A stretch of 64,000 nt of DNA, taken from positions 18,600,001 through 18,664,000 of the forward strand of contig OX597829.1 of the NCBI GenBank assembly GCA_951406725.2. The letters run 5' to 3'. Origin of the DNA: Octopus vulgaris (Eukaryota). How positions within the stretch are numbered: position 1 is the stretch's first letter; the number at the start of each line of letters is the position of its first letter. This document shows positions 31,201-37,200 of the stretch, in pieces. The notes beneath the pieces are model-generated. The model ran no database searches, was not told the DNA's origin, and saw only the letters and a program-made list of their open reading frames with translations. The position numbers and the translations under genes are program-made.

Positions 31201-34200
31201 AAGACTAGCAGTATCGCCCGGCGTTGCTCAGGTTTGTAAGGGAAATAACTATAAAGCATATTTAGAGAGTTATAGCCAAAAAAGAGCAAAAAGATGGTAA
31301 AAAATGATGGTAAATTTTTTTTTTAGTTAAAAAAGGTGGAGTTGCGTCCCCTAGACAGTTTGCGGTTTGTGTTTCTGATTCTCAACCCCATGTCGAATTT
31401 ATCGATTTTTTTCAGAACTGGGGGAACTTTTCAAAATTTTCGCTGCGTTAGTTTTGAATTATGACATTGGGCTATGTGTGTGTCAAGTTTCATCAGAATC
31501 GGTTGAAAGCCGTGGTCAGGGTGAGGGTACAAGAAAACAGACACACAGAAACACGCACAGACAAACTGCCGTTTATATAGAGAGAGATACATGTATACTG
31601 GGAAAAACCGGATAGTGAGTTAAGCCAGAGACAAAACATCTACCTAAATCAGTGGTTTCCAAAGTGGGTAGTACTGCCCCACTCCCTGGACTCAGTGGAA
31701 AGATCCAGGGGTGCATTGAAGAAAAGTGGGGGCAATAATGGGGTGGCCAAAAGATACTCTTTTACTCTCTTTTGACTTGTTTCAGTCATTTTGACTGCAG
31801 CCATGCTGGAGCACCACCTTTAGTCGGGCAAATCGACCCCAGGACTTATTCTTTGTAAGCCTAGTACTTATTCTATCGGTCTCTTTTGCCGAACCGCTAA
31901 GTTACAAGGGCATAAACACACCAGCATCAGTTCTCAAGCAATGTTTGGGGGACAAACACAGACACACAACCACACACATATATATATACATATATACAAC
32001 AAACGTCTTTCAGTTTCTGTCTACCAAATCCACTCACAAAGCTTTGGTTGGCCCGAGGCTATAGTAGAAGACACTTGCCCAAGGTACCACACAGTGGGAC
32101 TGAACCCAGAACAAAGTGGTTGGTAAGCAAGCTTCTTACCACACAGCCACTCAACAAAATAGTCGGTTGATTAGGTTAAGTTTTATTTGTGAAATACAGT
32201 TATTTTATGTTTGCTGCAGAAAGTGTTCTATGCTTGTGGTGGTGGGTGCTGGGAATGTGGCTTGGATGCCAAGGGAGCAGAACCCCTAAAAAGTCTGGAA
32301 ACCACTGATCTAAACCAAACTATGCCAAGCTGAGTTGAGGAGGAAAAATAAAGTTTCAGATTGAATCTGGTGCCAAATTCCTATCAATGAATATGAAAAT
32401 AATTAAGTTAATTATTTATTACCTTAATTTGGCAGGAAAAGGTTCCATTAGACCCATTTTAATTAGGGTATATTCCTGTGGACCAACACCCTGCAAAAAG
32501 AGAAATGAAGAAACATCATTTAGTGAATACAAGTAGTTCTGCTAGTGAAGTACAATGTGTTCTTTTTTCTTTAATTTTTTCTTTATCCTTGTACATTATA
32601 TAATCCTTAAGCTTAATGTCAATAGCCATCCCCCAGTTTATGAAAAAAATACAAAAATTCTTGTAAAGAACTGTGCGCTTCACAGTTCTAGCAACATGGT
32701 GTTTGGCTGTTGTGCGCATGCTCACATATCCGAGATAGGAAGCTTCATGTTAAGGAGAGAGTGCACTGTTGTTCATGCAATGCCGGTAAAAGGTAGTGTT
32801 TATGTTTGACTTTGCATCTGTTGCGCTGAAAAACATGTTTATATTCTTGAATGTGTAGAATTAGATTATTATCCTGCTTCCAGCTACAGTGTTACTGCCG
32901 GGATTTGAAAAATAGGGCAAATTTCCCCAACCCATTTTGTGATTTAGGAGGGATTTTTGAAAAACAAGGGGGAATTCACAACAGTGTTCAATGAACGAAT
33001 TAAACACACTACCCGGCAGTGGCTAAAATGAATACTGGGATTGATTAGTTCAACTAAACCCTTTGAGGCAGTGCTCCAGTATAGCCACAGTCCAATGACT
33101 AAAACAAGTGAAAAGTAATTGCTGAGTTGTGCAAATACATGGACAATGCTAAGATATGGCTGCATGGTAAGAAGCTTGCTTCCCAATCACATGATTCTGG
33201 GTTCAAATCCCACTGCATGGCATCTTGGGCAAGTGCATTCTACCATAGCCCCAGGCCGACAAAGCCTTGTGAGTGGATTTGGTAGACAGAAACTCGAAGA
33301 AGCCAATCACATATATGTGTGTGCCTTTGTGTTTGTCCCCACACCACGCTTAACAACCAGTGTTGGTTTGTTTACATCACTATATCTTAGCAGTACACAA
33401 AAGAGGCATTATTCCCACAATAAATACACCTTGATAAAAAACAAAAAAAAATTGAGATTTTTTTTCCACAATAACGAATGAACCTAGGACCCTACCACAG
33501 ACAGGCCGTTCTAAACAGACATTGATTGGCGAAACTGACATGGCAAATAAATCCTGCCACACACAGGCCATCCAAGTGCCTCTTGTAAATGACAAGAATG
33601 AAGACAATGACATGCAAACACCTACAAAACAAGAAACAGGAGATCCTGCAGAAAAAGACCAAACTTCCCACGAAAAGAAACAGATTCAGAGCAAACGCTC
33701 AAATGAAGAAAGGCCAGTATGTATCCATTACAGGAGCAACAAGTGCAAATATGGTCCTTCAGGTAAAGGGTGCACGTACAGTCACCCCAAACCATGCAAA
33801 CCATATATCAACTTCGGTACTGATCGAAAAAAAGGATGCCAAAATGGCCGAGAATGTGAACTCCTTCACTCAAAGATGTGCTGCAATTCGCTGAGAAAAA
33901 AAGAATGTTTTGGCGAGAATTGCAAATTTATGCACCGGAAGGGTACAATTCGCATAAAAACTACTGAACCCACACCACCAGGACCAAGCTCAGCAGGGTA
34001 TGAAAACCATTTCCCAAAAATGCGGAAACCAGGTCATGGCTCAACAGTGAATGAAAATTACGCTACTCAATTGCATACATCAGCTGTAACAAACCCAAAC
34101 TCGCAGAAATTCGATATAGTAATGAATGAAAGCAGTTTTTTAGGCATAATCTACAAACTACAACAACAGCTGTACTCCATACAGATGACTCAGCAAAACC

Positions 34201-37200
34201 AGGCAACATTGATACAAAGGCTGACACCTGGACTTACAGGGCACATACAACAAATACAGACAGCCCAGCAGACCGAATATCCAGTCAGCACAGTCCCAGC
34301 AACTACAACAGTCTTGCCAACAATAGGGCAGATGTATCTGGTACAACAAGCATAATAACAGCAAATATCCAGGGTCTTTATCCGAAAACAAAACAGTGTA
34401 AAGTCCCTTTCTTGGAAGAATTAGCAACAGAAAACAACTCCAAAATAATTGGAATTACTGAAAGTCATCTCAACGAAAACATCCGCAACAGCGAAATCAC
34501 AATCAATAGATTCAACATCTTCAGATGTGATAGACAAGGCAGATCCATGGAGGCGTTATCATGTATATCCATGATACCTATGCATGCATAGAACTTGTCA
34601 ATGAATCAAATGCCTACTGCAACCTGCTGTGCATAAAAATCATCCAACTTAATACAGTTGTAACAATAATGTACAGACCGCCAAACAGCCCAACATTATC
34701 CTTCACTGAGCCACTGACAAAGCTCCAACAAGTTCTGGGAAACATGGCGAGTCCAATGCCAGACATTATCCTCCTTGGTGACTTCAACTTCCCTAACATC
34801 ATCTGGCCACATGGACACATACTAAAACTGGGGACAAAAGCTGAACAAATACAGGCAGCCAAACTGTTGGAAGTCACAGAGAAATTATACCTCAAACAAA
34901 TGATGATAGAAGCAACAAGAAATAATAATACAATCGACTTGGTTTTCACCAACAACGAGGACACGCTATTTGACCTTCACTCAACCCCAACAATCCTTTC
35001 AGACCACAATATTATTGAAATGCATTTACACATTGGTAATGAGCCCAATGCCACAACTCTTAAACAAAAGGACATGCCAAAGCTATGCAGGTATGATTAT
35101 CACCAGGCAAATTGGGAAACTATTAACAACCAGTTACAAATCATTGACTGGGATCTCTACCTTACTGGGCCAGATAAACACAAGAAATTCTTAAACAAGA
35201 TCGAAGAAATATGTGCAAAAAATATTCCTCTTAAGAAAACCAAATCCACAAAAAAACCTGTACCACGGGAGCGAAAGATCCTGATGCGCAAAAGGTCAAG
35301 ACTAAGAAACAAAACATCTAAGCTGACATCAAAACATGAATTACAGAAAGTCCTTGACCAAATATACAGATTAGAAGACAATCTAAAACAACACTATGAT
35401 GAAGAACGTAACAATGCAGAAAAGAGAGCCATAGAAAACATCAAGAAAAATCCAAAATGTTTCTACAGTTTTGCAAAGAAATACTTGAATACCAAGTCAA
35501 CAATAGGATCTCTCCAGAGACAAAATGTGGATGTAGTGAATAACCCTATTGAAATGGCAGAAATGTTGGGTCAACAGTATGAAAGTGTCTTCAGTGAGCC
35601 ATCTAAAACCATGAAGATCCATGACCCAGGAAAATTCTTCAAGGATATCGACCATACTAAACCTACCCTATCCGACATTGATTTCAACCCAGAAGACATA
35701 GAAAGAGCCATAGACAAGCTCTCCATGCACTCGGCTGCGGGGCCTGACGGTTTCAATGCCATGATACTTAAAAACTGCAAGGTACAATTGTTGAAACCCC
35801 TTTACATGATATGGAGGGAATCTATGGAGATGGCAAAATACCAAATACATATAAAGAAGAACACATAACTCCAATACATAAAGGGGACAGCAAATCAAAA
35901 CCAAAGAACTACCGACCAATCTCACTGACATCACACATTATCAAGGTCTTCGAAAGAATAGTTCGTGGAAAACTGGTTGAGTTCCTGGAATCCAACAATC
36001 TGATGAATTGCAACCAGCATGGATTCAGGTTAGGTAGATCATGTCTTTCCCAACTACTGGCACACCATGACCAAATCCTAGAAAATCTAGAGAATGGATA
36101 CAACACAGATGTTATTTACCTCGACTTTGCCAAGGCATTTGACAAGGTAGATCATGGCATCCTGGGTCACAAACTTCGAAAGCTAGGAGTAGGAGGAAAA
36201 GTTGGTACATGAATACATGAGTTCCTTACAAATAGAACTCAAACAGTCACTGTGAATGGAACCCATTCAACACCATCACCTGTGACCAGCAGTGTTCCTC
36301 AGGGTACAGTACTCGGCCCAATCCTGTTTCTCATCCTCATCTCTGACATAGATGAAGATACAACCAGCAACGTCTCATCCTTTGCTGATGACACCAGGGT
36401 CATGAGACAAATCAAAGACGAGGTGGATACAGAGGCCTTACAAAAGGACCTGACCACCATATATAAATGGCAGGAAACAAACAACATGTTGTTCAATGAT
36501 AAGAAGTTTGAACTAATTCGCTACGGAACAGATCAAGATCTGAAAAATACAACAAACTACAGAAACCAATCAGGACAACAAATAATGGAAAAACAGTATG
36601 TGAAAGATTTAGGCATCCACATGGGAACCAGCCTAAAATTCAGAGAACACCTTGACTCAGTCTGTCTTACTGCAAGAAAGTACAGTGGGTGGATCTTGCG
36701 CACCTTCAAATCAAGAGATACCTCAACAATGAAAACCCTCTGGAACAGTATGATACTTCCGAGGATTGACTACTGTTCTCAGTTGTGGTCACCAACAACA
36801 AAGGTCCAACTATCTAAGATGGAATCGCTCCAAAGAAATTTTACCTCATACTTCTCAGAAACGAGGGACCTGGACTATTGGCAAAGACTCAAAACCTTGA
36901 AGATGTACTCAATAGAAAGAAGATTTGAGCGATACCGAATTATATATATTTGGAAAATGATAGAGCAAAAGGTGCCAAACTTTGGTATCAAAACCTACCA
37001 CTCACTGCGCCATGGAAGACGCTGCCAGCTACCACCAATCAACAAAAAGGCTGGCCAGGCAGCAAAAACCCTGCGAGAGTCAAGTCTGTTGGTTCGAGGA
37101 GCACAACTATTCAACTCCATTCCGGTACATGTCAGAAATCTATCAGGATGCAGTGTGGAATCATTCAAATTGCAGCTGGATAGATACTTAAGCACCATTA

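Follow-up and report, generated by a model that had tools for sequence, protein, structure and literature searches.

We present a comparative sequence analysis of a retrotransposon copy of the long interspersed nuclear element (LINE) type, carried by a 64,000-nucleotide (nt) stretch of the Octopus vulgaris genome (contig OX597829.1, positions 18,600,001 to 18,664,000 of the forward strand; termed the window, in whose numbering all coordinates without a locus name are given), and of the family, here called family A, to which this copy belongs. The analysis points, with a probability that we place at roughly 70%, to translation of the second open reading frame (ORF2) of family A by -1 ribosomal frameshifting at the slippery heptamer U_UUU_UUA, a low-level event that would yield a fusion of ORF1 with the endonuclease and reverse transcriptase (RT). 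ORF1 and ORF2 overlap in the -1 register, no AUG precedes the endonuclease in ORF2, this layout is conserved, and slippery heptamers in one specific phase accompany such overlaps across families. The slip itself is likely to occur, presumably unaided by a local stimulator and at a low rate, and the resulting fusion is likely to work uncleaved.

At the junction, the remaining 3' part of ORF1 in the window copy (33466..34355, plus strand, as are all parts of the element given here) reads AGT TTT TTA GGC and holds the candidate heptamer, encoding Phe-Leu, in the ORF1 phase at 34136..34142. The -1 frame is closed by a TGA at 34127..34129, two codons 5' of the slip site, and the whole overlap of the two frames spans 226 nt (34130-34355) with ORF2 in the -1 frame. 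Past the heptamer the double-open stretch (34143..34355) encodes an ORF1 tail made of a helix-like segment and then a Q/T/P-rich one; its -1 reading gives a linker of ~70 codons that is rich in S, T and N and free of AUG. The TGA, the in-phase TTTTTTA, an overlap of ~225 nt and the lack of an ATG ahead of the endonuclease motifs NIQGL, IIGITES and FRCDR had all been recorded in a first-pass annotation made from the letters alone, and every one of these holds at the positions just given. The first ATG that it placed at ~34547 does lie after these motifs; it is in frame only through a private 1-nt deletion near 34544, and the first Met of the family falls ~5 codons later, so the conclusion that no start precedes the endonuclease stands. 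ORF2 (34355..37340) has Pfam matches to endonuclease (PF03372/PF14529), starting at residue 74 (numbered from the heptamer), and to RT (PF00078), with no RNase H or protease domain seen. In the window copy two private 1-nt deletions, near 34544 and near 35829, and a stop at 36210 disrupt ORF2, and this copy itself therefore cannot make the fusion.

The layout extends to the family. In the alignment of family copies that had been proposed as a check, drawn from the best 30 of 51 DNA-search matches in the genome, 29 loci span the junction, and T_TTT_TTA stands in the ORF1 phase in 28 of these (and in 25/26 copies of a separate genome pattern search). In none of the 29 are the two ORFs joined in a single frame, and the consensus -1 frame contains no ATG ahead of the endonuclease. 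In 24/29 copies the -1 frame has its first Met at codon 140-141 past the slip, within the endonuclease, the exceptions being codon 136 (two copies with 1-nt deletions), codon 72 (one private ATG) and codon 65 (a 2-nt insertion); in the short copy L011 the first Met was also read as codon 141. Since the heptamer is kept in 28/29 copies and no copy is fused, the layout is not an artefact of decay or a private indel. In two of the six long loci (L281 and L284) the -1 frame is open over 1068 codons from the heptamer. The copies of family A are ~98% identical and thus establish the layout of the family, not selection upon it. The ORF1 part in the window holds 5 in-phase canonical heptamers, by which rate the probability of at least one in the overlap is ~0.5, and the chance of the family A heptamer under synonymous recoding is 0.011. 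One heptamer alone is weak evidence, and support comes from other families.

Three further octopus families were compared, of which B and C are, together with A, 34-37% identical over the endonuclease (ORF2 of B is 36% identical to that of A). Family B, found via its zinc fingers (60 loci fetched, L119 left out as too divergent), carries a -1 overlap with U_UUU_UUA, read TCT TTT TTA, one codon past its own -1 stop in 53/59 loci; the Ser codon before the heptamer differs, being TCT in B versus AGT in A, the chance of the heptamer under synonymous recoding is 0.031, and the overlap indels shared by its subfamilies (99 and 12 nt) preserve both frames. The -1 overlap of family C has A_AAU_UUU in 94/98 copies, which encodes Asn-Phe and not Phe-Leu and precedes a helix-like ORF1 tail that resembles those of the others by eye; no Met before the endonuclease was found in any of 23 scorable loci (of 30). 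In family D, G_GGU_UUU is present in 23/23 anchored loci (of 38 examined), together with a second site G_GGU_UUA; a change at the G_GGU_UUU site was recorded at locus L276, and no upstream Met was found among intact copies.

These comparisons bear upon splicing, which the first-pass annotation had offered as its alternative, with TTTTTTAG as acceptor; such a 3' splice site would link ORF2 to an ORF1 exon lying upstream. An AG does follow the U-run in family A and in the more distant element L172 described below; family B, however, has TTTTTTAC with no AG following, families C and D are without such a motif, and two further AGs lie at most 12 nt upstream in family A. By cis preference, spliced RNAs should be copied back into the genome, yet a deletion ending at 34143/34144 occurs in 0/29 family A copies. 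Contigs of four sequencing runs show no joint at the site, weak evidence in that these are contigs and the RNA status of the runs is guessed, and one 3067-nt contig passes through it unspliced. Splicing can accordingly be regarded as highly improbable.

Distant relatives were sought in a metagenome scan, from which the best 80 of 469 relatives were taken and 29 had sufficient upstream DNA; a viral contig scan returned none. Among these relatives, 8 have a convincing ORF1 in a -1 overlap, and 7 of the 8 carry an in-phase heptamer, the words being U_UUU_UUA, C_CCU_UUA (two elements), A_AAA_AAC (three elements) and G_GGA_AAC. Together with the four octopus families they make up a main count of 12 elements whose ORFs overlap in the -1 register, and a canonical heptamer of varying word stands in the correct phase in 11 of them, where the rates of the individual elements predict 3.0 (P = 6e-7 with the elements treated as independent), and it is this comparative result that supports the ORF1-ORF2 fusion by -1 frameshifting put forward in the first-pass annotation. 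In the same windows the two wrong phases give 0/12 and 1/12, and among elements without a -1 overlap 0/10 have a heptamer in the last 70 ORF1 codons. With kinship allowed for by taking one element per tree group, P is 6e-5 to 1e-3, kinship being read from a quick tree only, in which A, B and C form one 100%-supported group. The octopus families alone give P = 0.017, and inclusion of doubtful rows gives 11/15 (P ~6e-5 with assumed rates). A pooled P for synonymous recoding was discarded because some elements gave 0-30 valid resamples.

The diversity of heptamers also bears upon slippage of the polymerase on the T6 run, by which a base would be added in some transcripts and the frames fused in RNA. 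T-run length variants do occur among family B copies, the fused copy L073 included. Against this, A_AAU_UUU, G_GGU_UUU, C_CCU_UUA and G_GGA_AAC, found in C, D and several metagenome relatives, are not long homopolymers, and cis copying should turn fused RNAs into fused copies, which amount to 1/59 loci in B and 0/29 in A. This explanation is hardly to be credited.

Other junction types were encountered among the metagenome relatives. Four of them (L191, L192, L195 and L201), which form a well-supported group, have +1 overlaps with no canonical heptamer, and in three others ORF1 and ORF2 share one frame with a single intervening stop followed by CA (L176:965-973, TAG CAA TAT; L183:702-710, TGA CAC ACT; L233:2216-2224, TGA CAG CTA). 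The last of these fits the CARYYA read-through motif, which hints that LINEs may also employ read-through of a stop. A PHD-like Cys cluster was seen by eye in the endonuclease frame of L190, L196 and L205, and N-terminal fusion therefore looks tolerated. A wider proposal can be framed, for and against which we see the chances as evenly balanced: -1 shifting may be the default route of RT expression for CR1-group LINEs over a wide range, those of octopus among them, giving an uncleaved, retrovirus-like ORF1-ORF2 fusion through interchangeable slippery words and mostly without a local stimulator, with lineages switching among -1 overlap, +1 overlap and stop read-through.

Several observations pull the other way and have to be weighed against frameshifting. 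The elements in the main count are related and not independent, nor do the copies of a young family testify to selection independently of one another. In L203 a -1 overlap without an AUG goes with no canonical heptamer; L190, L211 and L244, which are -1 candidates with doubtful ORF1s and were excluded from the main count, also lack one. Upstream AUGs are present in L172, L174 and L177, and in family B an AUG in the ORF2 frame lies 25 codons past the slip in 43/43 scorable loci, with the frame open in 41. The openness of the -1 frame past the heptamer is unsurprising under synonymous recoding in family A (P = 0.62) and unremarkable in B, C and L177 (P 0.12-0.19); it exceeds that expectation in D, L174, L185, L186 and L213 (P 0.003-0.046). 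In family A, moreover, an AUA that overlaps the ORF1 stop lies right at the start of the endonuclease. No local stimulator was found in family A, where the best stem has -1.8 kcal/mol and is equalled by 16/25 shuffles, with no simple pseudoknot, and across the sites that were folded 2/13 (L174 and L182) beat all 25 shuffles.

The folding of family A confirms the earlier impression that no obvious hairpin lies downstream. Neither a stem-loop nor a pseudoknot occurs 5-9 nt 3' of the heptamer, and the lone nearby hairpin, of 5 bp and 27 nt past the heptamer (34170..34184), is not credible as a stimulator (z = -0.74). Long-distance pairing with the 3' end was considered and is unsupported, the best 3'-tail duplex ranking 49 among 327 windows in A, 4-24 in B and 15 in C. 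The bases directly past the slip in family A (34143-34159) pair with an RT-coding stretch 1.9 kb downstream (36027..36045) at 16/17 nt, beating 100/100 shuffles. As a stimulator this duplex was rejected, in that 5/98 other ORF1 windows do equally well, it is absent in B and C, and it starts at spacer 0, significance being lost (18/100) when a 5-nt spacer is imposed; it may serve as a lead only.

The upstream AUGs invite the reading that ORF2 is started independently of ORF1, by non-AUG initiation, internal or leaky, within the overlap (at an ATT in the linker of A, for instance, or at the AUG in B), with the heptamers as by-products. Near-cognate codons are available in the linker of A, AUGs in B, L172, L174 and L177, and an internal ribosome entry site has been claimed for mouse L1 (PMC3592465; this and the other papers cited are drawn upon in the accessible portions of their text). 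No start codon or structure is common to the families, however, and such initiation does not predict the phase bias of the heptamers, which makes it very unlikely.

A serious rival, if an unlikely one, is termination-reinitiation, by which ORF2 would be restarted at a near-cognate codon after ORF1, yielding free ORF2 protein. In family A this codon would be the AUA of UAAUA, as the ORF1 stops TAA TAA overlap ORF2 Ile codons ATA ATA (34353..34358) in the geometry of UAAUG in SART1 (PMC3708506). ATAATA is found in 33/35 family A matches, beside one ATAATG and one ATAAGA, and hence an AUG over the ORF1 stop, as in SART1, occurs in 1/35 and AUA in 33/35. The end of ORF1 at the start of the endonuclease in A, B and C, the tolerance of L1 for non-AUG ORF2 starts (PMC1965478), the upstream AUG of family B and the lack of a stimulator in family A would likewise suit reinitiation. 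It nevertheless leaves the phase-specific heptamers of 11/12 elements unexplained, and in B and C the ORF1 stop coincides with the Leu-Asn codons of the first endonuclease motif, whose letters necessarily spell a stop when read in the ORF1 phase. The ATG after the ORF1 stop of B and C is out of frame, C and D have neither a start nor a stop-start pair before the endonuclease, and the UAAUA arrangement is not common to B, C or D. In A itself, restarting at the second Ile would leave just three residues before the first conserved Asn. The comparison with reinitiation or coupling in L1 and SART1 had been drawn in the first-pass annotation and is retained here; UAAUA at 34353-34357 and the -1 frameshifting of Dictyostelium TRE5-A and TRE3-A had been overlooked in it.

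On the reading that we prefer, -1 frameshifting, most ribosomes would stay in frame and produce the full ORF1 protein (~469 aa). A few would undergo tandem tRNA slippage on the Phe-Leu codons of U_UUU_UUA at a low rate, exchanging the last ~70 residues of ORF1 for the flexible S/T/N-rich linker of ~70 residues, and would then continue to the ORF2 stop, for 1068 codons counted from the heptamer. The predicted product is a minor fusion of the N-terminal part of ORF1, linker, endonuclease and RT, with a stoichiometry similar to that of Gag-Pol; it would stay uncleaved, given that the domains found by Pfam in ORF2 are those of endonuclease and RT, with no protease among them.

Several further observations were made on these families. 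Fused single-frame copies were recorded at L073 (family B; a 2-nt deletion beside the T run) and L128 (family C; an internal duplication). Family C is very young and of high copy number, with 2258 candidates and many copies 100% identical over 501 nt, and its copies (L121-L140) are mostly bordered by (AT)n microsatellites, which suggests a target preference. In the ORF1s of A-C, CCCH-like fingers occur together with an N-terminus that is PHD-like in A and Myb/SANT-like in B and C (window 33720-33935; L063; L131), the latter resting on a weak Pfam match in B and read by eye in C. The esterase-ORF1 element L172 (1447-1482) shows a textbook-looking signal, its ORF1 ending in U_UUU_UUA GUA UAA with a 9-bp hairpin 11 nt past the heptamer.

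The window copy as a whole is a 5'-truncated copy of a young CR1-group LINE (33466..37376, end approximate) with an AAATG-type repeat tail; the CR1-group label is a probable one, given on domain content and motifs. The dispersed copies have staggered 5' ends, which together with the short tandem-repeat tail is what a CR1-group non-LTR (long terminal repeat) retrotransposon should show. Against the column majority of the 30 loci the window copy has 31 substitutions and 2 one-base deletions over 33466-36000. It begins at 33466, whereas other copies carry ORF1 to ~469 aa with the PHD-like Cys/His cluster that is missing here. Three CCCH-like zinc-finger motifs can be read from the translation of ORF1 (33720..33935); a UniRef name on ORF1 protein P0001 is 'C3H1-type domain', and a weak Pfam zf-CCCH match is found only in family B. 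The proteins nearest to this ORF1 are assigned by their source to Octopus vulgaris. A 51-nt tandem duplication in ORF1 (33977-34040) defines a subfamily of ~10-12/30 loci and is the sole joint found in the contigs of the four runs guessed to be RNA. A minus-strand exon at 43918-44088 matches cytoplasmic leucyl-tRNA synthetase and a second exon at ~17850-17990 (minus strand) was read by eye; this gene probably carries the LINE copy, in antisense orientation, in one of its introns.

The translation of LINE ORF2 from bicistronic RNA is called unclear outside L1 and SART1 (PMC3708506, PMC5009743), and a phase-specific slippery signal over CR1-group lineages offers a directly testable answer. If true, it would imply an endonuclease-RT protein tethered to ORF1, with consequences for ribonucleoprotein assembly and the ORF1:ORF2 ratio, and would explain the many predicted ORF2 proteins of the CR1 group that start inside the endonuclease. 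An experimental test is practical, since Octopus vulgaris counts CR1 families among its recently active LINEs (PMC13282606) and both frames are open in some copies (L281 and L284, and in family C). In the accessible text of the sources, a 2016 review of frameshifting discusses only HeT-A, TART and L1 among LINEs (PMC5009743), and the word frameshift is absent from a 2026 CR1-group survey (PMC13343379), a 2014 ORF1 survey (PMC4120745) and a 2026 octopus repeat annotation (PMC13282606). No report of -1 frameshifting for CR1-group LINEs was found in a literature search that left subscription journals, Repbase reports and supplements outside its scope.

Among known systems, the gag-pol junction of HIV-1 has a stem-loop after its slippery site, which family A is without; family A moreover has no protease domain seen and is neither a virus nor an LTR element. 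The likeness to gag-pol of HIV-1 and of LTR retrotransposons lies in U_UUU_UUA, the -1 geometry and the excess of structural protein over fused polymerase (PMC5009743). SART1 and mammalian L1 share with family A the bicistronic LINE RNA, and UAAUA at the ORF1 stop of family A is a further point of likeness. They differ in that SART1 has an AUG at the stop and the ORFs of L1 do not overlap, whereas the -1 frame of family A is open ~70 codons upstream of the ORF1 stop and accompanied by an in-phase heptamer. With other CR1-group elements (CR1/Zenon/L2) the families share an ORF2 made of apurinic/apyrimidinic endonuclease (APE) and RT, and a PHD-like ORF1 as in types described in PMC4120745; the CCCH-like fingers (A, B, C), the Myb/SANT-like N-terminus (B, C) and the overlaps go unmentioned in the accessible text of that survey. 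Zenon elements are described as being without ORF1 and with poly-A ends (PMC13343379), unlike the families here.

Recoding has been proposed for ORF2 of the Paramecium non-LTR groups 1-3, by +1 frameshift or read-through (PMC5405496), that is +1 or in-frame and not -1, and in a ciliate-specific clade. The closest precedent is that of Dictyostelium TRE5-A and TRE3-A, which are likewise APE-type non-LTR elements with two ORFs and an ORF2 of APE and RT, and whose ORF2 is said to require a -1 frameshift (PMC5911963). They belong to another host kingdom and LINE group, are targeted to tRNA genes and carry a C-terminal zinc finger, whereas the signal in octopus and its relatives spans several CR1-group lineages and six heptamer words, and ORF1 runs on for 1-70 codons beyond the slip. 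The -1 frameshifting of a LINE as such has thus already been stated for TRE5-A and TRE3-A, and a CR1-group instance would be new within the literature searched.

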